From Jimgerdemannia flammicorona (lineage: Eukaryota): a stretch of DNA of 44,075 bases. Location: the NCBI GenBank assembly GCA_003990765.1, contig RBNJ01000072.1:1-44075 (forward strand), given 5' to 3'. The notes beneath the pieces were generated by a model, which worked only from the letters and a program-made list of their open reading frames with translations, was not told where the DNA came from and did not search any database. Shown piece by piece: positions 3,776 through 44,032 of this stretch (the first letter of the stretch is position 1; each line of letters opens with the position of its first letter). A program made the position numbers and the translations under genes.

Positions 3776-4251
3776 TGTAACATGGTGGATGCTTACTCTT
3801 GAAAGTACGTTGGATTTCTGTATCTTGAAAACTTGATCCTTCTGACTCTTGCAGAGTCTCTTGAAGTTGTAAGGGAGGGTGGGTGAGTTCGAAGTATATC
3901 TGCCCACAGGCTTACTAGTTTCTTTGCTATCTCTTTGCTTTGAACTATTTTGATCTGAGGTTTATTCACTCTAAGATACTGGGTTATTTATACAAGTTTG
4001 CTAGCTATGAGAGAGTGGCTAAGTAATAAATGAGTCATTTGGACTTTGTCGAAACATTTGGACAATATCTAAATACTATACTAAATTGGAATGTTCGATT
4101 TGGATAATGTCTAAAATTTAGACAATGTCTAAGAATTTAGACAATGTCGAAATCAAGGACTGCTAACTATAAGGTTATACTACTTTGGGACTGGGTGCAA
4201 TCAAGTGTCTATTCCCTATTTCCTTCTTCCAAATTTGGCTGTACCATCACA
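3776..4251 (-). repeat. 3' LTR of copy A
   Basis: TGTAAC...ATCACA termini; direct repeat of 10022-10498; purine run AGAAGGAAG immediately upstream on the minus strand. Confidence 0.95.
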
Positions 4252-4288
4252 ACTTCCTTCTGAATGGATGGTCTTGTCCCTGAGACAT

Positions 4289-4750
4289 CTATTCAAACTC
4301 CCAGGCTTTAATGGTCTGTATGGTCTTGTACTGTACAATTTGCTGTATGACTGTTTCTCAATGATGTCTCTTCACTTTCTCGAAGTTGGTGGGGGTTACA
4401 CCTCTCAGGTGGTCTATCGCTACTTCATCTTCTCAGAATAACTTGTGGATCCTTTTGGCAATAGTGATCTGTGAGTGGGAGAGTTGACACTCGGCAATCC
4501 AGTCCTCCTTGGTCTTTGCTGGATCTTGATTGAGCACCTGTCCAAGCTTGAAGTACTCTTGGAATTCTGCCCGATATTGATAGGCTCTAAAGTGCAAGAT
4601 CTGAGAGAGAAGAGTCTGTACAATACTCTGAATATCCTCATAGTATGCCTCTATGGTCAAAGGCTCAGTGGTGTGCCATTGTCTTTCGATGGCTCTTTGG
4701 GCAGCACTAGTGATCTTGAGTGCCATTGCAGTACTTTTGTTACTGACCAT
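4289..4750 (-). pseudogene. ORF3 of copy A, 153 codons, unknown function, two premature TGA
   Basis: Colinear with the intact 17397-17858 ORF; reading through the stops gives ...KRIHKLF*EDEVAIDHLRGVTPTNFEKVKRHH*ETVIQQIVQYKTIQTIKAWEFE. Confidence 0.85.
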
Positions 4751-5933
4751 GATATTTCTTAAGTTGGTTTTGGTGAATGGTGGTGGGGATTATTGTGCCT
4801 GAGAGTTTTCGTAGCCAAAAGGTAGTCCCTTTTATATCTTGCACAAGGTAAGATCCTTCCCACTTGGGCTTCAGTTTTCGTGACCATGAATCTTCTACCA
4901 TATTCTGATACACTAGGACCTTGTCTCCTATCTTGATAATCTCCAAGGGCTTGTGGGTCTTTTCCGCATTCCTCTGTTGTAGTGTCTGCACCTTGGTTAT
5001 GTAATCCTCAGCCTTCTTCCTGATTTGGTGTAGTCTCTGTATTTCCATGTCCACATGTTTCCATACAGCATCTCTATTGAATGATAGGGTTCCTTGAGAA
5101 TATTCTTCTCCAAACAGCATTTCTTGAGGGGTAAAGTGGGTGCTTTGTGATTGGATATCTCGGAGAGCAGATAATGCTATTGGCAGATAGTGATCCCAGT
5201 TCTCATAGTTATCACAGATCTTAGCAATAACATTCTTGAGGGTTTTGTTGGTCCTTTCTACTTGTCCGTTTCCTTGAGGGTGATAGGCTGTGGTCTGAAT
5301 GTGCTGGATCTTGTACTTCTTGTAGAGAACCTCAAAGAGCTGGTTCACGAATTCTGTTCCTCTATCTGTAGTTACTTGTGTTGGGGTCTTGAACTGGTAG
5401 ATGATTTCCTTGTGGAAGAAATTGGTGATTGACTGTGCATTGGCTTCCTTGAGGGGTCCTGCTTCTATCCACTTCATAAAAAGGTCTATGATAATAATAA
5501 TGTATCAGTTACCAGTTAGGGTCAAGGGTAGAGGGCCGATTACATCTATTGCTATATGGGCAAATGGTACTGGTTCTATGTGTACTGATCCTGGGGCTTG
5601 ATTCCATTGGTCTTGTTTCTGTTTCTGGCATTTGTCGCATGTCTTGACAAATTGTCTGATATCTTCCTCCATTCCTGGCCACCATATTGTTCTTCTTGCC
5701 TTGTCATATGTATTCATTCCTCCTAAATGGCCAAGTTTGTGTACTGATTTCATTGCTTGCTCCTTCTTGTATTCTGATATGACCAGTAGTTTTCCTTTCT
5801 TCAGTGTTTCTCCATCGATTTTGAATTGTTTCCATATCCTGTTGATAATCGTTTGTATACATTCTTCCAGATGTTGGGGCATCTTTCGCTGTCCCAGGTA
5901 TGTAATAATTCCATAGTAGAGCTCCTTATTCAT
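4740..5933 (-). pseudogene. Integrase of copy A in its own ORF (MNKELYY...KKYHGQ), with an internal stop
   Basis: HHCC (HKLGH...CDKC), D (AIDVIGP), D (TDRG), E (VERTN) and GPY-like KWEGSY motifs; no chromodomain. Confidence 0.92.
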
Positions 5934-8900
5934 GATTGATTTGTTGGTTAGAGGTAGTTCGAGATGTCCGTGAGAGAGCATCTGTATTGGAATTTGTTCT
6001 TCCAGGGCAGTGTACAATGGTTACATTATAGGCTTGTAACTTCATTATCTATCTGGCATAGATTCCTTTAGGTTGTCCAGTTGTCAGTAGCCAGGTGAGA
6101 GCTGAGTGGTCCGTCTGGATGGTGAAGTGTCTTCTGGCCAGATAGTAGTGGAACTTTTCCACAGCCCAGATGACTGCAAGGCATTCCAACTTGTAGGACT
6201 TGTATTCTTTTTCAGCCCCTCGGGTTCCATGGCTAAGATATGCAATGACATACTCTTTTTTGTCTTCTTTTTGAGCTAGGACTGCTCCCAGTCCTTGTGT
6301 GCTTGCATCTATCTGAAGGATAAATTCTTGGGTCCAATTGGGTCATCTGAGGATGGGTGCCTGAGTTAGTCTGATCTTGAGTTCGTCAAATGCTTTTTGT
6401 TGTCTGCCAATCCACTGGAACTTGGTATCCTTCTTGTTGAGTTTGTAGATTGGACCTGTGATGTTGGAGAATCCTCTAATGAATCTGCAATAGTAGGAGG
6501 CAAGTCCCATGAAGGCTTGGGCTTCTGTGACAGTAGTGGGCCTTGGGTATGCTACTACTGCTTATATTTTGAGGGAGTCCGTGTGTGTTCCATCTCAATT
6601 GATAATATGGCCAAGATAGGAGATCTCGATTTCTGCAAACTTGTACTTCTTGGGTTTGATATAAAGGCCATGTTGTCTTAGTCTCTCCATTATCTGCTGT
6701 ATGTGCTGCAGATGTTCCTCAGGTGTCTTGCTGTAGATGATTATATCATCAACATAGACCATCATCCATCTTCCCATGTCATAGTGGAAGATTTTATTCA
6801 TCATTTGCTGAAAGCTTGCTGGTGCATTGCACATTCTGAATGGCATTCATAGGTAGATGTAGGTTCCGTCTGGGGTGATGAAGGCTGACTTTTCACTTGC
6901 CATCTCTGTGAGTCCGATTTGGTGAAATCCTGAGTATAAGTCCAAGGTGCTGTAGTACTCTGCTTTATCTCCCAGTGTTATAAGGATGTCACTGATGAAC
7001 GGCAGTGGTTGGCGATCCTTCTTAGTAACTGCATTGAGCTTTCTGTAGTTGACACAGAGCCTTGGGGCAAATTCTCCAGGTTTGCTTCCTTTTTTCGGGA
7101 CTAGTACAACTGATGAAGACCAGGGGCTGCTGGCTTCTTTGATGATACCAGCTTCTTCCATCTGCTTGATTTCTTTTTTGAGCCATTCTCAGTAGGCTGG
7201 CGGGATGGATCTTGCCTTCTGGTAAATTAGTTCAGTGTCTCCAGTATCTACCTCATGATAGTAGTGTGGGGTCTTTCCCTTGATATCCTTGAAATCCATG
7301 GCAAGGACATCCTCAAATTTGTGGAGTATTTTCTTGAGTTCCTCCTTGAGTGGGAATTCATCTCCAATAGTGTAACTATGCTTGCTTGTGTTTTCTTCCT
7401 TCTTATGCTCGAGTTCGGTGATCTTGGTGCTGGTGAATACTCCTCTTCCTGTGGATCTGAATCCTTTCTTTCCTCTTTTCATTTCCTCCAGATTCTTGAC
7501 TTCTATGATCCTTGGCTGTATGATTGAGAAGATCAACATCTGTACCAATCAGTCCTTCTTCTTGACTGGGAATGAAATTATAGGATTGTGGTTCCTAGCA
7601 ATGAGTAGAATTTCTCCAGTATAGTCTGAATTAATGACTCCTCCTTCAATTGTGATTTCGCTTCTAGCCAGGCTGCTTCTTGTCTTGAGAATCCCAACAT
7701 GATCCTTTGGGATAGTCATCTCTAGTCCAGTTGCAAGTAGGGTGGTTGTCTGGGGTTCGAGTATAGTTTCTTCTACTGTAGCAATGTCCATTCCGGCTGT
7801 GTTTTCTGACTTGTATTCTGGCAAGACTGCATCAGAGTGGATCTTTCGAATCTTGACCTTGATTTCTTCTTCATTATCACTGTCCTCCAGGAGGGCTGGT
7901 GGTTCATCATCTTCCTCCTTCTCTTCTTCTCTGATCTGTTTTTCAAGAGCTTTCTGCCTTCTTTCCTGGTAGATCTTCTTGGTTCCAATGGTGCACTGGT
8001 AGCAATCGTTGATATGCTCTATACAGTACATCTTGATTCCATGAGGATAGACTCCTTGTTGGGCATAACCTTCTGCGATCTTCTTGCACACTCATCCATT
8101 CAACTTTCTTCTTCTTTGGAGTAGTCACCATATAAGCTTCCTCTTGCTCACTCTCTTCTTCCTCCATATCAGGCAGGACTCCTTTGTTGATGTTGATGGG
8201 AATTCATATCTTCTGTCCCCGGTAGGTGATCTGCATCTTCTGAGCATTGAGATCAATTACCGCCTTGGCTTTATGAAGCCATTGATTACCGATGAGGATG
8301 TTATAGTTGGTGGCATTGGTTACGATTACATCTACTGGAATTGTTGCTCCTCCGATCTTGATGGGAATATCTCGGATCTTTCCCAGAGGTGTGGCTCTTA
8401 TGCCATCGGCTGTGACGAATACTAGCTTAGTTGCTTCTTCCACATCCCAACCTAGGTGGTCCACTGCCTTCTTACTGAGGAGACATCCTCCTGCTCCTGT
8501 ATCAATGATGGCTTCAAAGATTCCATCTTCGATTTGGTATGTTGCATAAGCAGAGGTTTTGTGATTATCCTCACTTTCTTCTCCTGAGTCCTCTTGAACA
8601 TTATTGGTCTCAGTTATCTTCCATCCTTGTTTCTTGGTTGTTTTGGCAAGTCCAAACCTCATTTGCTGTCTGAATGTTGGGATTTCTGCAAGCTGACCAA
8701 AGGTTGCATAGACCTTTTGTTGACTGAGATCCTTGAAGATATCATACTTGAAGGTCTTGGTCTTGCAAAGCTTCTTTTCTTTTTCTCCTTCACTGGCTGG
8801 AGTGGTTCCTTGGATGATATCTTGAACTACTTACTCCAGCTTGATATCTTGGTCCATCTCTTTGGCTTGGCTTTCTGTGGCAGTTTTCATCCATTTTTCC

Positions 8901-9907
8901 ACTGGGTTCTTCTTGAGTCTTCTTGGTAGTCTCTTGTAGGGTTCTTTGCAAGCATCCTTCTTAGTGGTCTGAGCAGGATAGGCCTCCCATTCCTCTTCAT
9001 CAGATTCTCTGATTTCTTCAAAGGTGATTGTATTGGCCTGCTCCTTGTTTCATGTGGCATTGCTTGGTTGAGCCTTGCATTTGGTTTCACTCATACATTC
9101 ATAGGAGTAGTGGCCTTCTTCTCCGCAGCTGTAGCAGGTACCTTTCTTCTTATCTGAGGTGGTGGCAAACTTCTGAACAGGGCGGTGATCTCTTCCTCGG
9201 ATTTCCTTTACCACATCTCCCAGGTGGGCAGTCATTTCAGCAAACCTTTTGGCAAGTTCCTCCATAGGGTCACTGTTCTTTTGCTGCTCTGTAGCTTTTG
9301 GCTGAGGTGTGTTTCGATTGATCATTGTGGTTGGGATCACACTAGTTGCCTTGAGTGCCTTGATTCTGACTCCTGTAACTCTCTCCATTGTGTGGTCTTG
9401 TGGGTGTCTGGCTATCCAGTATCACTGAGCATAGGTGACCTTCTGTGGCAGATCCAGAATCACTGGTGATGAGTGGATGGCCATGGCTATTTCTGGATGG
9501 ACTCCTTTCATGAAGGTTGCTTCGGCTACTTGATCTCGGATAGCAGCAGCATAATCTGCAAGGATTATCTGATATCGAATTCTGGTATAGAATGTGTTTG
9601 GATCCTCACTCATTCCTTGGCATGTTGTGTTGAGCTGATCCTTTAGAGCTTGCTTGATCTTGTCTGTGTAATATGTATTTCGGAGCCAGGTCTTCTGTGC
9701 TGTCAGTATGGTATCGGCATCATTTCCTGCATGGGTTGTGGCTGTGAATGCTGCTCTGGCAGGGCCTCGTAGGCTGAAGAGCATGAGGGCTACTTGCTGT
9801 GCTGCTGTCAGAGTCCTTACGGCAGCATACTGCTCAAAATCATCAATGAAGGTGATGATTAATTCATCTGAGGTATATTCATGGAATACTGGCAGTCTCA
9901 TATCCAT
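5926..9907 (-). pseudogene. gag-PR-dUTPase-RT-RNaseH polyprotein of copy A (stops, plus an 11-bp deletion near 8092)
   Basis: CYSCGEEGHYSYEC knuckle, IIDTGAG protease, SPWSS, LDLYSGFHQI, YVDD and RNase H ending DALSR. Confidence 0.95.
7447..7863 (-). pseudogene. dut: dUTPase domain, copy A
   Basis: Trimeric dUTPase motifs AGMDI, RSSLA, GVINSDYTGEI, VQMLI and RGKKGFRSTG. Confidence 0.93.
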
Positions 9908-10000
9908 TTTGTCTGGGTATTGGAGCTCGGTTTGTATGGTTGTTCGGATAGTGGTGGTTGTTCATTGTTTAGCTTGAAAGTGAGGGATTCATCTTAAATC

Positions 10001-10018
10001 ACCAGCCAATGGGCACTA
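10001..10018 (-). promoter_or_regulatory. Primer binding site of copy A (TGG mutated to TAG)
   Basis: TAGTGCCCATTGGCTGGT, 3 nt after the 5' LTR; matches the B PBS. Confidence 0.85.
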
Positions 10019-10021
10019 AGT

Positions 10022-10498
10022 TGTAACATAGCGGACACTTACTCTTGAAAGTACGTCAGATTTCTGTATCTTGAAAACTTGACCATTCTGACTCCCACAG
10101 AGTCTCTTGAAGTTGTAGGGGAGGGTGGGTGAGTTCGAAGTATATCTGCCCACAGGCTTACTAGTTCCTTTGCTATCTCTTTGCTTTGAACTATTTCGAT
10201 CTGAGGTTTATTCACTCTAAGATACTGGGTTATTTATACAAGTTTACTTGCTATGAGAGGGTGGCTAAGTAATAAATGAGTCATTTGGACTTTGTTGAAA
10301 CATTTGGACAATGTCTAAATGCTATACTAAATCGGGACATTCGATTTGGATAATATCTAGAAATTTAGACAATGTCTAAGAATTTAGATAATGTCGAAAT
10401 CAAGGACTGCTAACTATAAGACTATACTACTTTGGTACTGGGTGTGATCAAGTGTCTATTCTCTATTTCCTTCTTCCAAATTTGGCTGTACCATCATA
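10022..10498 (-). repeat. 5' LTR of copy A
   Basis: Direct repeat of 3776-4251; terminal CA decayed to TA. Confidence 0.95.
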
Positions 10499-11648: not shown

Positions 11649-12115
11649 TGTGATAGTATAGCCAGATTTGGAAGAAGGAAATAGGGAATAGATACTTGAT
11701 CACACCCAGTTCTAAAGTAGTATAGCTATATAGTTAACAGTCCTTGATTTTGCAACTTGCTAAATATTTCGCAAAGTGCAAGATCAAGTTCCCCAATATA
11801 GTATAGCATTTCGCAACTGGCGAAACATTTCGCAAAGTGTTAAATGACTCATAACTTAGCCACATAACTCAGTAATCATCTCATAGCTAGCAAACTTGTA
11901 TAAATAACCCAGTATCTTCGAGTGAATAAACCTCAGATCGAAATAGTTCAAAGTAAAGAGATAGCAAAGGAACTAGTAAGCCTGTGGGCAGATACACCTC
12001 GAACTCACCCACCCTCCCCTGCAACTTCAAGAGACTCTGTAAGAGTTAGAACAGTCAAGTTTTCAAGATACAGAAATCTGACGTACTTTCAAGAGTAAGT
12101 GTCCACTACATTACA
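11649..12115 (+). repeat. 5' LTR of copy B; ATGACTCAT site ~11844, TATAAATA 11899-11906, AATAAA 11925-11930
   Basis: Direct repeat of 17896-18362. Confidence 0.95.
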
Positions 12116-12118
12116 ACT

Positions 12119-12136
12119 TGGTGCCCATTGGCTGGT
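12119..12136 (+). promoter_or_regulatory. Primer binding site of copy B
   Basis: TGGTGCCCATTGGCTGGT, complementary to a tRNA 3' end ..CAGCCAATGGGCA-CCA; isotype not identified. Confidence 0.88.
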
Positions 12137-12229
12137 AATTCAAGATGAATCCCTCACTTTCAAGCTGAACAACGAACAACTGCCACCACCTGAACAACCA
12201 TATAAACCGAGCCCCAATACTCAGACAAG

Positions 12230-15200
12230 ATAGATATGAGACCACCAGTATTCCATAGATATACCTCAGATGAATCGATCATTACCTTCATTGTTGATTT
12301 CGAGCAGTATGCCACTGTAAGGACTCTGACAGCAGCACAGCAAGTAGCCCTCAGGCCCTTCAGCCTACGAGGCCCTGCCAGAGCAGTATTCATAGCTGCA
12401 ACCCATGCAGGAAATGATGCCGATACTATACTGACAGCACAGAAGACCTGGCTCCGAAATACATATTATACAGATGAGATCAAGCAAGCCCTGAAGGATC
12501 AGCTCAATACAACATGCTAAGGAATGAGCGAGGATCCAAACACATTCTATATCAGAATTCAATATCAGATAATCCTGGCAGATTATACTGCTGCTATCTG
12601 AGATCAAGTAGCCGAGGCAACCTTTATGAAAGGAGTCCACCCAGAAATAGCCATGGCCATCCGCTCATCACCAGTGATTCTGGATCTGCCACAGAAGGTC
12701 ACCTATACTCAGTGATATTGGATAGCCAGACATCCACAAGACTATACAATGGAAAGGGTCACAGGAGTCAGAATCGAGGCACCCAAGGCAACCAGTGTGA
12801 TCCCTACCACAATGATCAATCGGAACACACCTCAGCCAAAAGCTACAGAGCAGCAGAAGAACAGTGACCCTATGGAGGAACTCACCAAAAGGTTTGCTGA
12901 AATGACTGCCTACCTGGGAGACGTGGTAAAGGAAATTCGAGGAAGAGACTGCCACCCTGTTCAGAAGTTCACCACCACCTCAGACAAGAAGAAAGGCACC
13001 TGCTATACTTGTGGAGAAGAAGGCCACTACTCCTATGAATGCATGAGCGAAACCAAGCACAAGGCTCAACCAAGCAATGCTACATGAAACAAGAAGCAGG
13101 CCAATATAATTACCTTTGAGGAGATTGGAGATTCTGATGAAGAAGAATGGGAGGCCTATCCTGCTCAGACCACCAAGAAGGATGCTCACAAAGAGCCCTA
13201 CAAGAGACCACCAGGAAGACCCAAGAAGAACCCAGTAGAAAAGCAGATGAAAACAGCCACCAAAAGCCAGACTGAAGAGATGGACCAAGATATAGAGCTG
13301 GAGCAAGCAGTTCAAGATATCATCCGAGGAACTACTCTAGCCAGTGAAGGAGAAAAAGAAAAGAAGCTGCACAAGATGAAGACCTTCAAGTATGATATCT
13401 TCAAGGACCTCAGTCAACAAAAGGTCAATACAACCTTTGGTCAGCTTGCAGAAATCCCAACATTCAGACAATAAATGAGGTTTGGACTTGCCGAAATAAC
13501 TAAGAAACAAGGATGGAAGATAACTGAGGCCAATAACGCTCAAGAGGACTCAGGAGAAGAAAGTGAGGACAATCGCAAAACCTCTGCTTATGCCACATGC
13601 CAAATCGAAGATAGAATCTTTGAGGCCATCATTGATACGGGAGCAGGAGGATGTCTCCTCAGCAAGAAGGCAGCAGACCGCCTAGGTTGGGATGTAGAAG
13701 AAGCAACTAAGCTGGTATTTGTCACAGCCGATGGCACAAGAGCCACACCTCTGGGAAAGATCTGAGATGTTCCCATCAAGATTGGAGGAGCAACCATCCC
13801 AGTAGATGTAATTGTAACCAATGCCACCAATTATGACATCCTCATTGGCAATCAATGGCTTCACAAAGCCAAGGCAGTAATCAATCTCAATGCCCAGAAG
13901 ATGCAGATCACCTACCGGGGACAGAAGATACGAATTCCCATCAATGTCAACAAAGGAGTCCTGCCTGATATGGAGGAAGAAGAGAGTGAGCAAGAGGAAG
14001 CTTATATGGTGACTACTCCAAAGAAGAAGAAAGTCGGATAGATGAGTGAAGAAGAATGGTGCAAGAAGATGGCAGAAGGCTATGCCCTACAAGGAGTCTG
14101 TCCTCATGGGATCAAGATGTACTGTATGGAGCATATCAATGATTGCTACCAGTGCACCATCAGAATCAGGAAGATCCACCAGGAAAGAAGGCAGAAAGCT
14201 CTTGAAAAACAGATCAGGGAAGAAGAGAAAGAGGAAGATGATGAACCACCAGCTCTCCTGGAGGATAGTGATGATGAAGAAGAAATCAAGGTCAAGATTC
14301 GAAAGATCTACCCTGATGCAGTCTTGCCAGAATACAAGTCAGAAAATGCAGCCAGAATGGACATCACTACAGTAGAAGAGACTGTACTGGAACCCCAGAC
14401 AACCACCCTACTTGCAACCGGATTGGAGATGACCATCCCAAAGAATCATGTTGGGATTCTCAAGACAAGAAGCAGCCTGGCTAGAAGCGAAATTACAATT
14501 GAAGGAGGAGTCATCGATTCAGACTATACTGGAGAAATTCTACTCATTGCTAGGAATTACAATCCTATAATCCCATTTCCAGTCAAGAAGAAGGACTGAT
14601 TGGTGCAAATGTTGATCTTTCCGATCCTACAACCAAAGATCATAGAGGTTAAGAAGCTGGAGGAAACAAGAAGAGGAAAGAAAGGATTTGGATCCACAGG
14701 AAGAGGAGTATTTACCAATACCAAGATCACCGAACTTGAGCATAAGAAGGAGGAAAACACAAGCAAGCACAGCTACACCATCGGAAATGAATTTCCACTC
14801 AAGAAAGAACTCAAGGAAATACTCCATGAATTTGAAGATGTCCTTGTCACAGATTTCAAGGATATCAAAGAAAAGACCCCACACTACTATCATGAAGTAG
14901 ATACTGGAGACACTGAACCAATTTATCAGAAGGCAAGACCTGTCCTGCCAGCCTACTGAGAATGGCTCAGAGAAGAAATCAAGCAGATGGAAGAAGCTGG
15001 CATCATTAAAGAAGCAAGCAGCCCCTGGTCCTCACCTGTTGTACTGGCCCTAAAAAAAGGTAGCAAGCCTGGAGAATTCACTCCAAGACTCTGTGTCGAC
15101 TACAGAAAACTCAACATGGTTACCAAGAAGGATCGCCAACCACTGCCCCTCATCAATGACATCCTCATAACACTGGGAGACAAAGCACAATACTACAGCA

Positions 15201-16221
15201 CCTTGGACTTATACTCAGGATTCCACCAAATCGGACTCACAGACATGGCAAGTGAAAAGTCAGCTTTCATTACTCCAGACAGAACCTACGTCTACCTATG
15301 AATGCCATTCAGAATGTGCAATGCACCAGCAAGTTTCCAGTGAATGATGAACAAAATCTTCCGCTATGACATGGGAAGATGGATGATGGTCTACATCGAT
15401 GATGTAATTATCTACAGCAAGACACCTGAGGAACATCTGCAGCATATACAGCAGATAATGGAGAGACTAAGACAACATGGCCTTTACATCAAACCCAAGA
15501 AGTGCAAGTTCACAGAAATCAAGATCTCCTATCTCGGCCACATCATCAACCAAGATGGAACACACATGGATCCCCTCAAGATACAAGCAGTGGCCGCATA
15601 CCCAAGACCCACCACTGTTATGGAAGCCCAAGCCTTCATGAGACTCACCTCCTATTATTGCAGATTTATTAGAGGATTTTCTAATATTGTGGGACCAATC
15701 TACAAACTCAACAAGAAGGATACCAAGTTCCAGTGGACTGGCAAACAACAAAAAGCATTTGATGAACTCAAGGTCAGACTGACCCAGACACTCATCCTCA
15801 GAAGACCTGACTGGACTCAAGAATTCATCCTACAGACTGATGCAAGCGCACAAGGACTAGGAGCAGTCCTAGCTCAAAAGAAAGATAAAGTGGAGTATGT
15901 CATCGCATACCTCAGCCGCAGAACCCGAGGAGCTGAAAAAGAATACGAATCCTACAAGTTGGAATGCCTTGCAGTCATCTGGGCTGTAGAAAAGTTCCAT
16001 TACTACTTGGCTGGAAGATACTTCACCATCCAAACGGACCACTCAGCTCTCACCTGGCTCTGACAACTGGACAACCCAAAGGAATCTATGCCAGATGGAT
16101 AATGAAGTTGCAAGCTTATGATGTAATGATCGTACACTGCTCTGGAAGAACCAATGCTAATGCCGATGCCCTCTCATGGACACCCCGAAGGACCCCAACC
16201 CTATAAAATTGCCATGAATAA
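12230..16221 (+). pseudogene. gag-PR-Cys-rich-dUTPase-RT-RNaseH polyprotein of copy B (one frame broken by stops; 1-bp deletion ~16060)
   Basis: ORF fragments starting at 12236, 12749, 13247, 13475, 14042, 14600, 14987 and 15344 all share one frame; motifs CCHC, DTG, YIDD, QTDASAQGLGAVL, TDH and NADALS. Confidence 0.95.
14285..14701 (+). pseudogene. dut: dUTPase domain, copy B
   Basis: ARMDI, RSSLA, GVIDSDYTGEI, VQMLI and RGKKGFGSTG motifs. Confidence 0.94.
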
Positions 16222-17407
16222 GGAGCTCTACTACAGAATTATCACATATCTGGGACAGCGAAAGATGCCCCAACATCTGGAAGAATGGATACAAACGATT
16301 ATCAACAGAACATGGAAACAATTCGAAACTGATGGAGAAACACTGAAGAAAGGAAAACTACTAGTCATACCAGAACACAAGAAGGAGCAAGCAATGAAAT
16401 CAGTACACAAACTTGGCCACCTAGGAGGAACAAATACGTACGATAAGGCAAGGAGAACAATATGGTGGCCAGGGATAGAGGAAGATATCAGACAATTCGT
16501 CAAGACCTGCGACAAATGCCAGAAACAGAAACAAGATCAATGAAATCAAGCCCCAGGATCAGCACACATAGAACCAGTACCATTCACCCACATTGCAATG
16601 GATGTAATTGGCCCTCTACCCTTGACTTTGACAGGCAACCGATACATCATCATCATCATAGACCTCTTTACAAAGTGGATAGAAGCGGGACCCCTTATGG
16701 AAGCCAATGCACAGTCAATCGCTGATTTCTTCCACAAGGAGATCATCTGCCAGTTCAAGACCCCAACACAAGTAACTATAGACAGAGGAACAGAATTCGT
16801 GAACCAGTTCTTCGAAGTTCTCTACAAGAAGTACAAGATCCAGCATATTCAGACTACAGCATATCACCCTTAAGGAAACGGACAAGTAGAAAGGACCAAC
16901 AAAACTCTCAAGAATGTTATTGCTAAAATCTGCAATAGCTATGAGAACTGGGATCACTATCTACCAATAGCATTATCTGCTCTCTGCGATATCCGATCAC
17001 AAAGTACCCACTTCACTCCTCGAGAAATACTGTTCGGAGAAGAATGTTCTCAGGGAACCTTGTCATCCAATGGAGATGCTGTATGGAAACATGTGGATAT
17101 GGAAATACAGAGACTACACCAAATCAGGAAGAAGGCTGAGGATTACATAATGAAGGCACAGACACTACAATGGAGGAATGTGGAAAAGATCCACAAACTC
17201 TTGGAGATTATCAAGATAGGAGATAAAGTCCTGGTGTATCGGAATATGGTTGAAGCTTCATGGTCACGAAAACTGGAGCCTAAGTGGGAAGGACCTTACC
17301 TTGTGCAAGATATAAAAGGAACCACCTTTTGGCTACAAAAACCCTCAGGCACAATAATCCCCACCACCATTTATCGAAACTGACTCAAGAAATATCATGG
17401 TCAGTAA
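16214..17407 (+). pseudogene. Integrase of copy B in its own ORF, with premature stops
   Basis: Same length (1194 bp) and motifs as in A; KWEGPY. Confidence 0.92.
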
Positions 17408-17858
17408 CAAAAGTACTGCGATAGCACTCAAGATCACTAGTGCTGCCCAAAGAGCCATTGAGAGACAATGGTGCACCACTGAGCCTCCGACCATAGAGGA
17501 GTCTTATGATAGTATCCAAAGCATCATACAGACTCATCTCTCTCGGATCTCACACTTCAAGGCCTATCAGCGTCAGAACAAATTCCAAGAGTACTTCAAA
17601 CTCAGCCAAGTACTCAACCAAGACCCAGAAATGACCAAAGAAAATTGGATCACAGAATGCCAGCTCTCCTATTCCCAGATCACCATTGCCAAGAGAATCC
17701 ACAAGCTATTCCGAGAGGATGAATCAGCACTAGCCCACCTGCAAGGAGTGACTCCCTCAGACTTCGACCGAGTCAGGCGATACTATTGGGAAACAGTGAT
17801 ACAACAAATTGCGCAATACAAGACCATACAGACCATTGAAGCTTGGGAGTTTGAATAG
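17397..17858 (+). CDS. ORF3 of copy B, intact 153-aa protein of unknown function between IN and PPT
   Basis: Open ATG-to-TAG ORF with a same-length homolog in A; no hydrophobic TM or signal stretch visible. Confidence 0.85.
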   Translation: MVSNKSTAIALKITSAAQRAIERQWCTTEPPTIEESYDSIQSIIQTHLSRISHFKAYQRQNKFQEYFKLSQVLNQDPEMTKENWITECQLSYSQITIAKRIHKLFREDESALAHLQGVTPSDFDRVRRYYWETVIQQIAQYKTIQTIEAWEFE

Positions 17859-17895
17859 ATGCTTTAGAGACGAGATCATCTATTCAGGAGGAAGT

Positions 17896-18362
17896 TGTGA
17901 TAGTATAGCCAGATTTGGAAGAAGGAAATAGGGAATAGACACTTGATCGCACCCAGTCCCAAAATAGTATAGCCACATAGTTAACAGTCCTCGATTTCAC
18001 AACTTGCTAAATATTTCACAAAGTGCAAGATTGAGTTCCCCAATATAGTATAGCATTTTGCAACTGGCAAAACATTTTGCAAAGTGTTAAATGACTCACA
18101 ACTTAGCTACATAACTCAGTAACTATCTCATAGCTAGCAAACTTGTATAAATAACCCAGTATCTTCAAGTGAATAAACCTCAGATCGAAATAGTTCAAAG
18201 CAAAGAGAGAGCAAAGGAACTAGAAAGCCTGTGGGCAGATACACCTCGAACTCACCCACTCTCCCCTGCAACTTCAAGAGACTCTGCGAGAATCAGAACA
18301 GTCAAGTTTTCAAGATACAGAAATCCAATGTACTTTCAAGAGTAAGCATCCACTACATTACA
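17896..18362 (+). repeat. 3' LTR of copy B
   Basis: Direct repeat of 11649-12115. Confidence 0.95.
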
Positions 18363-21830: not shown

Positions 21831-23434
21831 GTCTATACAGCTAGTAGTCAGGATCATACTCAATTTAGTATTTAGGTAACTATACTTATTGTGACTGAGA
21901 GGCAGAGATATAGAAGAGATGGAGGGGTATGGATATTTAGTATCTGAATTAGATAAGATCTCAATAACTGTATCTATATTGGCATTGGTTTTTTATAAGT
22001 AATATATAATAACTGCATTATAGATATAATCTACAAATAAAGATTTTTTTAAGTTGCCTAATGGTTAATAACTAAATAAAAGCTAACTGATTAGTCAGAA
22101 TAGTAAAGTAAGTTCTGAAAAGATAGTAGTGGAACTTTTCTACTACTCAGATAACTGCAAGATACTCTAACTTATAAGATTTATATTCTCTTTCTCCTTT
22201 GTTAGTTCCTTAGCTAAGATATATAATTATATATTTGATCTTATTCTTCTTTTGTATAAGAATACCTTCTTTTCAATTGTACTTATATCTGCCTACAGAA
22301 TGAACTCTTAAGACTAGCTAGATCTTCTCAAGATAGGTGCCTGAGTTAAACAGACTTTGAGAGATTCAAATTCTTGTAATTGTCTGCCAGTCTATTAAAA
22401 TTTAATATCTTACTTAAACAATTCTTAGATAGAGCCTAAAATGTTGGTAAATTCTTTAAAAAACCATCTATTATAGATAGTAAGTCCTATGAAGGCTTGA
22501 GTCTCAGTAACTGTAGTGAGTCTTGAATAGACTTCAACTACTTGAATCTTGATAGAATCTGTATAGATTCCATCTGATTGATAATATGTCTAAGATAAGA
22601 GATCTCAATTTTACCAAACTTACACTTCTTTAGCTTGACAAATAGATTATGATCTCTCAGTTTTTGCAAAATTTGGTAAATATAATTCAGATATTCCTTA
22701 TATATTTTATAGTAAATAACTATATTATCTCTATAGACTATGATCCTTTTTTCTATTTCTTCTCAGAATATCTTATTTATGTATTTTAATAATATATCAG
22801 AGTATTGAACATTCCAAATAGTATTTGCAGATAGATATAGATTTCATTCAGAGTAATAAAGGCTAACTTTTTACTAACTTCTCTACTGAGGCCAATTTTT
22901 TATTCCTGAGTATAAATCCAAGGTAGTGTAGTATTATACTTTATCCCTTAGTATTACCAGGATGTTACTGATGATAGATAGTAGTTAGTAATTCTTCTTG
23001 GTATCTTTATTCAGTTTTCTATAGTCTATAGAGAGCTTTGGAGAAAATTCTTCTAGCTTGTTTTCTTTTTTTATAGCTAGTACAATTATTATGAACCAGA
23101 GATAGATATTCTTCTTAATAATACTGATTTCTTCTATTTGCTTGATTTTCACTCTGAGCTATTTATAATATACTAGTGAAATTAGTCTTGTCTTTTGAAA
23201 GATAGGCTTAGTGTCTTCTATATCTATATTATAATAGTAGTATTGTATCTTTTCTTTGATATTCTTGAAATTAGTAGTAAGAATATCTTTAAATTTATAT
23301 AGCAGCTTTTTAAGTTCCTTTTTGAATGAAAATTTAGTTTCAATAGTATAGCAGTAATTCTCTGTGATATTCTCTTTCTTGTTATCTAATTAAGTAATCT
23401 TAGTACTTATAAAAACTCCTCTTTTTGTAGATAC

Positions 23435-23882
23435 TATGATGGTCAATCCAAATTAGTAATATAAATTAGGGGAATTAGACATTTGATTGTGGTACCTAAA
23501 TCTGATTTCCAAATATAGCTTAGCCTTATCGATAGCAGCCATATTTCACCAGAGCAGAAACTTTAATATTGGCAAAGTTTTGAGAGATGGTGAAATCTTC
23601 ACAGATGTTAAAAGATTCAATACTGATAGAAAATGACTCATTACTTAGCCACCTTATAGCTAGCAAACTTGTATAAATAACCCAGTATCTTAGAGTGAAT
23701 AAACCTCAGATCAAAATAGTTCAAAGCAAAGAGAAAGCAAAGGAACTAGTAAGCCTGTGGGCAGCTATACTTCAAACTCACCCACCCCTGCATCCTGAGG
23801 ACTCTGTGGAGTCAAAGAAGTTCAAGTTTTCAAGATACAGAAATCTAACATACTTCTAAGGTTCTACTATCACTACTTTACA
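23435..23882 (+). repeat. Solo LTR, third variant of the A/B LTR family
   Basis: 3' half nearly identical to the A/B LTRs (ATAGCTAGCAAACTTGTATAAATAACCCAG...); termini TATGAT/TTACA; perfect TSD ATAC (23431-23434 / 23883-23886). Confidence 0.9.
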
Positions 23883-31779: not shown

Positions 31780-33190
31780 AGGAGGGTGCATGCTTGCCTT
31801 GTCTCACCACTCAAAAGAGGAAAGGGGTTCTAAATGGTGCCTTAACTAAGATATATATATATTATTTTTATCCAGCTTTTCGAAAGAGGAGGGTGGGGAG
31901 GGTTTGAAATAGTGTCTTAACTAAGATATATAATTATATACTTTTTTCTTTTATCCAGCTTCTTGAAGGGAGAGAGTGTGTACTTACCTCATTTTGCTGC
32001 TTATTTCAGCTTTTCAAAAGGGGGAGGGTTCAAAATGGTATCTTAACTAAGGTATATATATATTCCTTTTATCCAGCTTTTCAAAAAGAGAGAGTGTGCT
32101 GCTCATTTCAGCTTTTCAAAGGGGGGAGGGTTTGAAATGGTATCTTAACTAAGGTATATAAATATTCTTTTATCTAGCTTTTTGAAAGGAGAGGGTGTGC
32201 TACTCATTTCAGCTTTTTGAAAGGAGGAGAATTCAAAATGATACCTTAACTAAGGTATATATATTCCTTTATCTAGCTTTTCAAAAGGAGAGAGTGTGCT
32301 GCTCATTCAGCTTTTCAAAAGGAAGAGAGTTTGAAATCACATCTTAACTAAGGTATATAATTATATACTTTCTCCTTTTATCCAGCTTTTTGAAGGGAGA
32401 GAGAGTGTGTGCTTGCCTTGTTTTGCTGCTCATTCCAGCTTTTTGAAAGGGAGAGGATTTGAAATGGTGCCTTAACTAAGGTATATATATATACATATAT
32501 TCCTTTTATCCAACTTTTGAAAGGAGAGAGTGTGCTGCTTATTTCAGCTTTTTGAAAGGAGGAGAAAATGGTACCTTAACTAAGATATATAATTATATAC
32601 TTTTTTCTTTTATCTAGCTTTTTGAAAGAGGGGAGAGGGTGTACACTTGCCTTATCTTGCTGCTCATTCTAGCTTTTTGAAAGAGAGAGGGTTTGAAATG
32701 ATGCCTTAACTAAGATATATATATATATTCCTTTTATCCAGCTTTTCAAAAGAAGAGTATGTGCTGCTCATTTCAGCTTTTCAAAAGAGAGGGTTTGAAA
32801 TGGTACCTTAAGTAAGGTGAATATATTCCTTTTATCCAGCTTTTTGAAGGAGAGGAGGGTGTGTACTTGTCTCATCTTGCTGCTCATTTCAGATTTTCAA
32901 AAAGAGAAGAGTTCAAAATAGTGCCTTAACTAAGGTATATATATATATTTCTTTTATCCAGCTTTTTGAAAGAGGAGGGTGCTCAGCTTTTTAGATTCAA
33001 AACAGTATCTTAACTAAGATATATATATATTTCTTTTATCCAGCTTTTCAAAAGGGCTTTTTGAAGGAGAGTATGTACTGCTCATTTTAGCTTTTCAAAA
33101 AGAAGAGGGTTCAAAATGGTGCCTTAACTAGGTATCTGCTTTTTTCTTTTATCTAGCTTTTTGAAAGAGGAAAGAGGGTATGCCACTCAA
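31780..33190. repeat. Tandem array of about 13 variable-length units (~75-130 bp) inside the hAT element
   Basis: Core CCTTAACTAAGG recurs 13 times, each followed by (TA)n and TTTTATCCAGCTTTT(C/T)(G/A)AAAG. Confidence 0.92.
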
Positions 33191-33279
33191 ATAATCTGAG
33201 GAGTATGTCAACAACTCTTCTCTTTCTTTTAATATGATCACCAATTGGCCTCAAGTAATTACAACAGAACAACTCTAAC

Positions 33280-35066
33280 AACTATCAGTTTCTACATTTT
33301 ATACTTTATCAGTAGACTCAGTAAATGACAACTAAGAATGAAGACACAATACTGTCTGAGCACTCTCTGGTAAAAGTGAGTTGTGGTTTTTTGTAATAGT
33401 GTTATCAGTAATTGAAAAAAGCTCTTCACAGGGAACACTAGAAGCTGGAATTGCCAAAATATCCCAAACCATAATCATCAGTATTAGAAATTGGCTTTTA
33501 TTTAGCTGTCAACAGTTGAGAGAATTGTTGCTGCTATCTTTATTAGAAGTTGAAAAATAGCAATTAATTTTATTGTTCACATTCATATTATAATTCTTTA
33601 CAGAAGCACTTCTCTCTACAACAATAGATTCTCCAATTAGCTCACAGAACTTTTGTACTGGTTTCTTCTTTTTGGGAGATGGCTGAAATATGTATCAGAG
33701 CTCTCTGTGGGGTACTGGAAACAACTTGAGCAATGAGGTCTGCATACTCCTTAAGCTTGCTGATTTTCGACTTATATTTCTTATCATCTTTCTCTAGTTT
33801 TATGCCAGGATGTAGTACTTGTGCTAACCAGTGTACATCTGAAAGCTTAGTAGTATATTCTTGAAGTTTACTTGCCATAGCTCTGTATGCTGGGACCTTT
33901 TTATCATTTAGATATTTCTTCATAAGAGAATAAATTTCTTCAACTTCATGAAGTATTGGCTCTAAATATGTTGAGAGAGCTTTGGTGGCTTCAGTATAGA
34001 TTTTTAAAACTTCAACATATATTTCGAGGGCCTTCCACTCATTTGACTCAAGTGTATTGCTGATGTTCTTTGTTTGGGACTAGATAAACAAGAGCTGAAG
34101 AGCCAGCTTTTAGAGGATGGCAGTATTTATCATGGCAAATATAGAGGACCATCTTGTCAGACAATCATGGAGAAGGTCATAGTAGTCAATCTCACAGTCT
34201 TGCAGTACTGTTTAAATTCTTCAATGATTTTAGGGCTCCTCTGGATTGTATTCACATAAAGGCAAAGCTTCATAAGTGGGCTGTTGGGGTTATCCTCATC
34301 AAATTCTTTCTCTACATCAAATAAATTCTTCAAGCCATCCTGAACAACAAGGTTGATAACATGTGTACTATATCTGATATAGTATATTTCTGAGGATGAT
34401 TTCTGCAAGTAAGTGAAAGTCATGAGTTATATTCAAGATATTATTAGTGATAAGTACCAGAAACTTATCTTTGATACAATATTCTGTAATAGTCATCAAT
34501 AGAATGTCCTTTATTGCTTCACTAGTGTGAGGATGTAGCATAGGGCAAACATCCAAAATGATTGACCAGAGTTTCCAATTTGAATTAATAAAATGTGCTG
34601 TCACTCCACAATAACTGTCCATGGATCCTGAGGTCCAGAGATCACACATTAAAGATATAGCTCCTGCTGTATGGCATAGAGTATATTGAATATGCCCTTT
34701 GTAAGATTTGAATTTCTCTATCACTAGTTTATGAGTAGTTTGACAGCAAGGAATATAATATCTTGGATTTAGGTGCTTTATGAATGCTTTGAAGTCTTCA
34801 TTATTGGAAGTTGAGAATGGTTGAAGATCTTTGACTATCCATGTAATGTAACTAGTAATAGTCTCATGCTCTTGCTGGGTAAGAGGCAATTCAGTTTCCC
34901 CTTCCTTGGTCATCTTTTCGGGATGACATTTCTTGATGTGAGTCCACAAGGTAGATGTAGCGCTACTGGCTTGATAAATCTTCTCTTTAGGACAATAGTT
35001 GCACTGCCTTGAGCCATTGGCCAATTTCGTAAAGTGGTGATAAACGCTGCTTCGGGAGGCACTCAT
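33280..35066 (-). pseudogene. hAT transposase with stops and a frameshift
   Basis: BED finger (CNYC..LWTHIKKCH), WIVKDLQPFS, CDLWTS, RYSTHVINL and C-terminal DILAIPASSVPCEESFS. Confidence 0.95.
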
Positions 35067-35286
35067 TTTGATATATAAGTGTTTTTTGTAAAAGATGTAA
35101 ATTAGTGGCTCATGAGAGACCACAGGTCAATGAACGCAGGAATGTCTTAGGCACTTAGGTCTCGGGCATATTGGTTTCGGATGTATTGGTTTCAGGCATT
35201 GAATAGCTGTCTTCGTTTCGGGTGCCATCGTCATTGCATGGCTTGTCTCAGTCATGAGTAGTAACTTCCACCTTTCAACCTGAGCT

Positions 35287-40624: not shown

Positions 40625-40800
40625 TTGGTATATTTACCAGATATTATTGGTAGTATCTGCACTGCTGATATTGTTGGTAGTACCCATACTACTGATGTTA
40701 GTAGTACCTATGCTGCTGATATTATTAGTAGTACTTATACTACTGATATTATTGGTGGTATCTATACTGCTGATGTTATTAGTAGTACCTATACTAGATA
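40625..40800. repeat. Degenerate 27-bp minisatellite, about 6 copies
   Basis: Unit approximately TGCTGATATTATTGGTAGTACCTATAC. Confidence 0.8.
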
Positions 40801-43174: not shown

Positions 43175-44032
43175 ACTATATTGCACTTTGCTCACTCACT
43201 ATTTTGCACTTCTCTCTATTGCCTACAGATTATAACTATCTTCTTTACTCTCTATCTTCTCTACTATAAAGATAGAAAAAAAAAGAAAAAAAAAAACCTA
43301 CCTCTTCACTGAGATCTCTATCACTGAGATCTCTTTATTGAGATCTCCTTTACTAAGATCTCCTTCACTGGGATTCTCTTTGCCATCTTCAATAATTCAC
43401 TATCTTCACCAATTCACTATCTTTAATAAAATCTACTTTATTACCTTCACAATCTCTAACAGTATATAAAGATAATGTATAAGAGATTGTAAGTATTCTA
43501 TTATATAACACTTTACTCAATTATCTATTATATTATATTTTACTCAATTGTTCATTATATTATATGTACTTTGATCAATTACTCGCTATATTATACTTTA
43601 CTCAATCACCCACTATTTTTCCCTTCTCTCCATTGACTGCAGATTACAACTATCCTCCTCACTCTTCATCTCTCCTACTGCAAAGACAGAAAAAAAAGAA
43701 AAAAAAAATATCTACCTCTTTACTAAAATACCCCTCACTGAGATCTTCTTTACTATCTTAACTAAGATTCCCTTTACTGGAATCCCTTTCACCATCTTCA
43801 CTAAGACTCCATTTACTGATATCTCCTTCACTATCTTCATCAAGATTATCTTTACTGAGATCTCTTTCATCATCTTTACTAATTTGCTATCTTTATCAAT
43901 TTAATATCTTTACTAAGATCTGCTTCATTATCTTTACAATCTCTAACAGTATATAATGATAATATGTAAGTATCCTGCTATATCACACTTTGTTCAATCA
44001 TCCATCATATTATACTTTGCTCAATTGTCTGC

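Follow-up and report, generated by a model that had tools for sequence, protein, structure and literature searches.

U3 palindrome arrays of a fungal Ty3/gypsy family co-segregate with ORF3, a candidate element-encoded regulator

Lambdoid phage immunity regions combine a regulator gene with rows of imperfect 17-bp dyads, and this module is exchanged between near-identical backbones. Among mobile elements, self-encoded DNA-binding regulators are established, according to the accessible portions of the papers, for complex retroviruses (PMC4929722) and plant DNA transposons (PMC5735166). In foamy viruses, Tas/Bel1 binds LTR DNA directly and is described there as having an N-terminal DNA-binding and a C-terminal activation domain (PMC4929722; PMC517496). 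VANC of VANDAL (PMC5735166) and TnpA of Spm (bioRxiv 10.64898/2026.08.24.746577) are described as transposon-encoded anti-silencing factors, for which binding and demethylation were shown. A bacterial case of changeable specificity, again as far as the available text goes, is ParB/Noc, in which two monomers occupy each palindrome by a recognition helix and further helices, and specificity is switched by few residues, including 173 and 201 (PMC7383237).

LTR retrotransposons may also carry an extra sense ORF between pol and the 3′ LTR (PMC7264820, PMC5408684, PMC2864245, PMC10309623). The types described are env-like proteins, enzymes, an RNA export factor or products without assigned function, and none is tied to DNA arrays in U3 in the accessible parts of the same four papers. 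Full-text literature, mostly outside subscription journals, yielded no description of an LTR retrotransposon's own U3-binding regulator, and our literature search found no paper on Sirevirus palindromes.

Palindrome arrays in the window and in the LTR family

The window, by which we mean the whole stretch of DNA analysed (44,075 nucleotides), is one contig (C72) of a 231-Mb genome, in which at least 88 Zn2Cys6 matches over the cut-off mark the host as a fungus. It contains two 6.7-kb LTR elements, A and B, oriented head to head, plus one solo LTR. Each is a decayed Ty3/gypsy element encoding gag, protease, dUTPase, RT, RNase H and integrase: the LTRs end in TG...CA, a primer-binding site and a polypurine tract are present, the order is gag, protease, RT, RNase H, integrase, and the dUTPase sits between protease and RT. 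No chromodomain was found in the 13 frames scanned. The features are:

3776..10496, minus strand: full-length element A, oriented head to head with B
4038..4152, minus strand: A-type array of five AC-core units in U3 of A's 3′ LTR
4289..4750, minus strand: ORF3 of element A, A-type allele, with an in-frame stop after codon 105
10284..10399, minus strand: A-type array in the 5′ LTR of element A
11649..18362, plus strand: element B
11649..12115, plus strand: 5′ LTR of element B with TG...CA ends, followed at 12119 by a TGG primer-binding-site-like stretch
11748..11844, plus strand: B-type array in U3 of B's 5′ LTR, made up of four imperfect 17-bp dyads spaced 19/42/19, with a CA core
11844..11852, plus strand: ATGACTCAT, directly 3′ of the last B unit, found also in A and the solo LTR
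11899..11906, plus strand: TATA box TATAAATA, common to all subfamilies and the distant metagenomic relatives
12145..17410, plus strand: coding region of element B, decayed and with approximate limits, comprising gag (with zinc knuckle), protease, dUTPase, RT, RNase H and integrase
17397..17858, plus strand: 153-aa ORF3 of element B, which is open here; candidate DNA-binding regulator
17886..17895, plus strand: polypurine tract of element B
17896..18362, plus strand: 3′ LTR of element B, carrying the other B-type array (17995-18091)
23544..23632, plus strand: decayed C-type array of five units with an 18-bp period, in the solo LTR (~23435-23875)

Elsewhere in the window, pol remains of a more diverged relative (~70-80% identical) lie on the minus strand at 22100-23420 and adjoin the oppositely oriented solo LTR; an ORF at 34368-35126 (minus), which has a BED zinc finger and a weak Hermes DNA-binding match, is probably a hAT transposase remnant; and decayed tandem repeats occupy 31800-33200, 40640-40796 and 43190-44030 (periods ~100, 27 and 15-78 bp).

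The A and B arrays are confirmed as real. All nine units named in a sequence-only reading of this DNA lie where it placed them (B at 11748, 11767, 11809 and 11828; A at 4038, 4057, 4099, 4117 and 4136), and each array is present again in the other LTR of its element (17995-18091 for B; 10284-10399 for A). In order, the B units of the 5′ LTR match at 7, 5, 7 and 5 of 8 dyad pairs, and the A units of the 3′ LTR at 6, 6, 6, 7 and 7. The best dyad sum is 24/32 for B, against a shuffle mean of 18.0 (reached by 1/300 shuffles), and 32/40 for A, against 23.7 (0/300). The perfect 17-bp consensus previously quoted for B is matched by no B unit in the window, where units 2 and 4 have 5/8 dyads only; the right arm of unit 3 is often CC (39/56 copies). 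What was read as an inner triplet switching on both arms does differ by subfamily on both arms, but the change is mainly one of a two-base core (AC vs CA). Likewise, the five decayed units of a third type proposed for the solo LTR exist, with an 18-bp period, but emerge only by comparison with 27 related C-type LTRs and fall far short of the A and B units in symmetry; taken alone, the solo LTR is no more palindromic than its shuffles (20/40 vs 19.5; reached by 151/300). At its end at 11844, 54 bp before the TATA box, the B array runs into ATGACTCAT, which matches the AP-1/Gcn4 bZIP site. The first B unit pair is symmetric as a whole beyond the 17-mers, and in less decayed B copies this pair (window 11740-11790) is framed by an extra dyad, CTCGAT...ATCGAG.

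The comparison across the family used 238 distinct LTR copies gathered by targeted, not random, searches, 195 of which were parsed into units, while 30 belong to a distant family, E, and 13 had no anchors or no clear type. The unit finder mis-registers G-type arrays (3 LTRs), and types G and H are left out of interpretation; G (L204, L207, L225, L232) and H (L208, L228) have another array register, their own ORF3 alleles and few copies. All 281 A-type units (100%; from 60 LTRs) carry A at half-site position 6 of each arm, and at position 7 they carry C in 93%/77% and otherwise T, whereas the B type (231 units, 59 LTRs) has C at position 6 in 100%/91% and A at position 7 in 95%/80%, and the D type (75 units, 22 LTRs) has T at position 7 in 92%/97%. 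By subfamily, the core on both arms is thus AC (A), CA (B) or CT (D) within a common frame, TT(T)NG...CN(A)AA, and dyad symmetry, the survival of which in a larger alignment had been in question, is retained in the larger alignments. When searched exactly, one A-type unit pattern gave 974 matches and one B-type pattern gave 191, whereas the reversed controls gave 0. Types C (27 LTRs) and F (22 LTRs) have an 18-bp period and degenerate, partly asymmetric cores, in which AC, CA, CC, GA and CT half-sites are mixed, as expected if a single tolerant protein read all of them.

Mean stops per ORF3 are 0.8 in A (a figure biased by the choice of open copies), 2.5 in B, 2.6 in F, 5.5 in C and 10.4 in D, and this rise from A to D suggests successive waves, with A as the youngest array type and C and F as older subfamilies. 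CpG occurs in 2/10 half-sites of the youngest type, A (e.g., 4038-4152), vs up to 5/8 in B; A-type arrays are possibly less methylation-sensitive.

ORF3 and its association with array type

ORF3 lies between integrase and the polypurine tract/3′ LTR. Its ATG overlaps the last integrase codons, which points to coupled translation, and its commonest start context in A and B copies is TATCATGGCCAGTAAC; integrase is apparently in its own frame after RNase H (window 16190-17410; L199:4935-6452). A genome search listed ~2,800 ORF3 candidates, 150 of which were scored. Net pN/pS between subfamilies is 0.11-0.33 (up to 300 sampled pairs per comparison, six mosaic copies excluded), and, as judged from these substitution ratios, ORF3 is under purifying selection. 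Pfam and PHROGs gave sub-threshold matches only (HTH_Tnp_Mu_2 in 4/56 members, best E 0.031), and the viral contigs searched contained no ORF3 relatives. Contigs from four runs cover the stretch in short pieces only, from which the phase of ORF3 and array is not readable.

Between elements A and B of the window, transversions per 200 bp are mostly 0-4 through gag-pol and 9-20 in ORF3 and the array-bearing U3 bins. Two gag-pol bins are exceptions, 16048-16247, with 11 transversions, which covers the RNase H/integrase junction, and 13248-13447, with 6. Net pS between A and B is 0.40 in ORF3 vs 0.048 in integrase. Across 22 elements, ORF3 distances follow array type and RT distances do not, the RT comparison being based on 1.1-kb RT stretches from 20 elements. 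For example, A differs from F/H by 0.3-1.3% transversions in RT and 13-14% in ORF3, and B differs from G by 0.1-0.8% and 10.6%, respectively, while three elements with RT ~11% from all others carry A-type arrays and ORF3s only 2.5-3.4% from A. This discordance implies that old ORF3-plus-U3 alleles moved between pol backbones in both directions, and on the strength of these distances ORF3 plus U3 is a deeply diverged cassette moved between such backbones. That ORF3 variants travel with site type suggests that a separate promoter-binding regulator is encoded by each subfamily.

The sample of 58 A-array and 37 B-array elements includes six A-array elements whose ORF3 is a mosaic carrying the B state at 5-13 of the 18 diagnostic residues. 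Residues 121 (Thr in A vs Ser in B) and 125 (Lys vs Arg) are the only ones at which the state of the opposite type is never seen (95/95 elements); third states at these residues occur in four copies. In 40 further elements chosen by ORF3 similarity alone (5 with A arrays, 34 with B, one without an array), both residues agree with the array in 39/39 classifiable cases, giving 134/134 in total, mosaics included. Codons 121-125 lie ~230 bp from the array, and therefore linkage alone predicts much of this co-segregation; B-like bases are retained downstream of codon 121 in some A-array elements, and the mosaic elements are related to one another. Both substitutions, T/S and K/R, are conservative, and C, whose core differs, usually has T121 as well. 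The mosaics thus narrow the putative determinants of specificity to residues 121 and 125, as candidates only. The earlier proposal that the units are sites for a protein of element-linked specificity fits these data and is partly supported, by the symmetry in larger alignments and by the co-segregation of the adjoining ORF3, a candidate for that protein; the degenerate, partly asymmetric C and F cores and block duplication within arrays limit this support.

Beyond this family, ORF3 relatives in public data form clades ~20-28% identical, again located after an integrase. A metagenome scan gave five loci, of which L202 has ORF3 but ends before the LTR. All four distant metagenomic relatives with an LTR carry a periodic array upstream of the same TTGTATAAATA, with unrelated dyad-like cores and periods of 20, 20, 21 and 20 bp (0/500 shuffles each), and the arrays end 39-89 bp before TATA. 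Arrays persist at the same place in clades whose ORF3s are ~25% identical. In the E family of this genome, the ORF3 domain is 25% identical and is followed by an acidic tail of ~190 residues; its U3 is repetitive and weakly periodic (11/500 shuffles) by an autocorrelation test that is insensitive to split arrays, since it missed the window's own B array (212/500 shuffles). E copies (L239-L268) are little diverged and have a TATA/poly(A) block in common with the others, and their long U3 is built from GCAAC/GTTGC and TCAGC words. The ORF3 tails have 10-11 D/E in the last 25 residues in clade 2 and 34 D/E vs 4 K/R in the last 150 in the E family; in the window clade the tail is mildly acidic (4-5 D/E of 25).

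The AlphaFold2 model of ORF3 (56 sequences; pLDDT 89, pTM 0.81) consists of helices throughout, with no strands, and R100, L104 and F105 are nearly or fully invariant. Five ParB-family proteins match the same region of ORF3 (Z 3.1-4.9, rmsd 4.2-5.5, 77-92 residues). With a first, weaker model these were KorB (Z 4.9, 92 aligned, rmsd 4.2) and Spo0J (Z 4.6, 91, 4.8), and with a second model VirB (Z 3.6, 79, 5.1), SopB (Z 3.2, 86, 5.5) and P1 ParB (Z 3.2, 77, 5.5); VirB was first among the Foldseek candidates (Z 3.9, 81 aligned, rmsd 4.5). Such Z values are common for helical proteins, and unrelated chains were level or above in both wide searches, the best Z (4.3) being to an unrelated-looking chain. 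Foldseek at E <= 0.001 found no ORF3 match in PDB or viral models, sequence searches of solved structures returned nothing significant, and none of 56 ORF3 members has a ParB-family Pfam match. By hhalign, ORF3 aligned to KorB (54 sequences) and P1 ParB (5) not above block shuffles, with a positive control that was itself weak (probability 4.6%). An N-terminal ParB/CTPase domain is absent from the 153-aa all-helical model, which has no Pfam match. Of the language-model neighbours, DUF3102, Plasmid_parti_N and a DUF1016/ParB HTH cluster reach 0.85-0.87, the best named neighbour being the RNA-binding repressor family PF01818 (0.90-0.93), and homodimer prediction scored 0.29 vs a mark of 0.32. 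The predicted likeness to ParB is therefore weak, a lead rather than membership.

Proposed mechanism and alternative explanations

Taken together, ORF3 probably binds U3 array DNA, if activator and repressor variants are counted together. More narrowly, and tentatively, we propose that the U3 units are dsDNA sites for the element's own ORF3, which would act as an LTR trans-activator or anti-silencer. In this model, ORF3 would be made from genomic RNA, translated by coupling to the integrase stop, and would sit as a dimer on each dyad via a ParB-like helical domain, with a recognition helix at 92-105 that includes the near-invariant R100 and a second helix at ~120-125 that would read the variable core. 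Its acidic-aromatic C-terminus would recruit host machinery, and host priming would come from the adjoining bZIP-like site. Older copies would neither titrate a new ORF3/array pair nor free-ride on it, which would explain successive cassette waves on a shared backbone. Two features favour activation over repression, namely the position of the sites upstream of TATA and the acidic-aromatic character of the tails (mild in the window clade). No internal-promoter copy of the sites was seen inside the window elements, where A/B site profiles score 16.5-25.4 only in the LTR arrays and <10 elsewhere.

It is unlikely, but plausible enough to be weighed first, that ORF3 is instead an autorepressor or copy-number control, which would occupy the array beside the bZIP-like site and damp the LTR, with cassettes like phage immunity types. 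Co-segregation and anatomy apply equally to such a protein, the last unit abuts ATGACTCAT, and the repressor KorB is among the closest folds; moreover, the ORF3 tail is short in the window clade, and a type switch would free a new subfamily from repression by resident copies. However, the sites end 39-89 bp upstream of TATA, not over it, and acidic-aromatic tails, up to ~190 aa in the E family, suit activation.

The arrays could also be upstream activating sequences for host dimeric factors, either different ones or one tolerant one, with ORF3 linked but serving another role. At least 88 Zn2Cys6 domains score over the cut-off in the host genome, a bZIP-like site adjoins the array, and the degenerate C and F cores fit this explanation, which nevertheless leaves three things unexplained: that frame and period are constant while the core changes on both arms within one genome, that ORF3 alleles much older than pol move with U3, and that each distant ORF3 clade has its own array. 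We therefore consider it quite improbable.

Any dyad array folds as RNA, as these do, and the arrays might be hairpins in the 3′ untranslated part of genomic RNA, bound by ORF3 as a Rev/CERV-like export factor or a RegA-like translation factor. The window arrays fold in pairs as sense RNA (z ~ -3.9), and the sense fold is stronger in 11/12 B and 12/12 F copies and in L200 and L201; PF01818, the best named language-model neighbour (0.90-0.93), is RNA-binding, and CERV offers a precedent, so far as the available text describes it (PMC10309623). Strand preference is inconsistent, however: sense is stronger in 7/12 D but only 3/12 A and 2/12 C copies, antisense folding better in 9/12 A and 10/12 C, and the L199 array folds no better than shuffles (z 0.5). 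In A-type arrays, A-C outnumbers G-U among the sense-strand mismatches, by 242 to 28 within units and by 260 to 41 between neighbours, and the 18-21-bp period across unrelated sequences suits DNA geometry. DNA sites are thus more likely than an RNA element, and the RNA explanation seems to us a shade less probable even than host factors.

Block duplication clearly contributed to the arrays, unit 1 resembling unit 3 and unit 2 resembling unit 4 in B and older A-type arrays, and D arrays varying from 1 to 9 parsed units; fewer independent changes are consequently needed than the arm count suggests. Neutral turnover, in which template switching transfers a core mutation from one arm to the other, unit and block duplication multiplies it and ORF3 only hitchhikes, would therefore need few events, but it is just as improbable as RNA hairpins, because positions 4 and 14 stay mismatched while cores stay matched, none of the 119 LTRs parsed as A or B has a hybrid A/B array, despite the existence of ORF3 mosaics, and arrays keep their place in clades with ~25% identical ORF3s.

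Returning to ORF3 as a self-encoded activator or anti-silencer, a fuller version, which we regard as doubtful, is that a widespread fungal gypsy lineage encodes a sequence-specific regulator on a prokaryote-like ParB-type domain, that ORF3 and U3 are kept as old exchangeable specificity types in the manner of phage immunity regions, that 2-5 ORF3 substitutions re-programme a CA core to an AC core, and that new types sweep, being neither titrated by nor helping older copies. If ORF3 does act as a self-encoded regulator, an unnamed accessory gene that has thousands of copies would gain a function, and subfamily succession inside one genome a mechanism. The system would also provide a natural protein/operator variant series with intermediates, in which a specificity switch is testable with two or few residues, and fungal expression tools might draw orthogonal regulator-site pairs from it.

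Comparison with known systems

The lambdoid immunity regions offer an analogy in which homology is not implied, since the present case is a eukaryotic retroelement. With PosPlaTy3-5, as the accessible parts of the papers describe it, these elements share a dUTPase between protease and RT (PMC7264820, PMC5408684, PMC2864245, PMC10309623).

The likeness to ParB/Noc, so far as the available text allows, is one of geometry: residues 173 and 201 are 28 apart, as are the variable ORF3 residues 93 and 121, a tentative correspondence that comes from aligned ranges and not from a residue-level alignment, and the weak structural matches cover model residues ~60-150 of ORF3. Unlike ParB, ORF3 has no CTPase domain and no significant sequence or profile match, and its Z is only 3-5.

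As with Tas in the accessible descriptions, the ORF3 gene lies between the pol/env position and the 3′ LTR. Here, however, the host is a fungus, the element is a Ty3/gypsy element without env, ORF3 has no Pfam match, the window elements show no internal copy of the sites, and the sites are regular dyad arrays with several allelic types in one genome. The parallel with VANC and TnpA, again from the parts of those papers available, is that dense or tandem arrays hold motifs specific to the family, which diversify together with the encoded factor (here by association only), and that the host shows heavy CpG decay. Those are plant DNA transposons with 8-10-bp motifs, whereas here we have an LTR retrotransposon with 17-bp U3 dyads and a putative function. 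By analogy, the putative ORF3 regulator would resemble Tas, VANC and TnpA in its working, while being a member of none of them.
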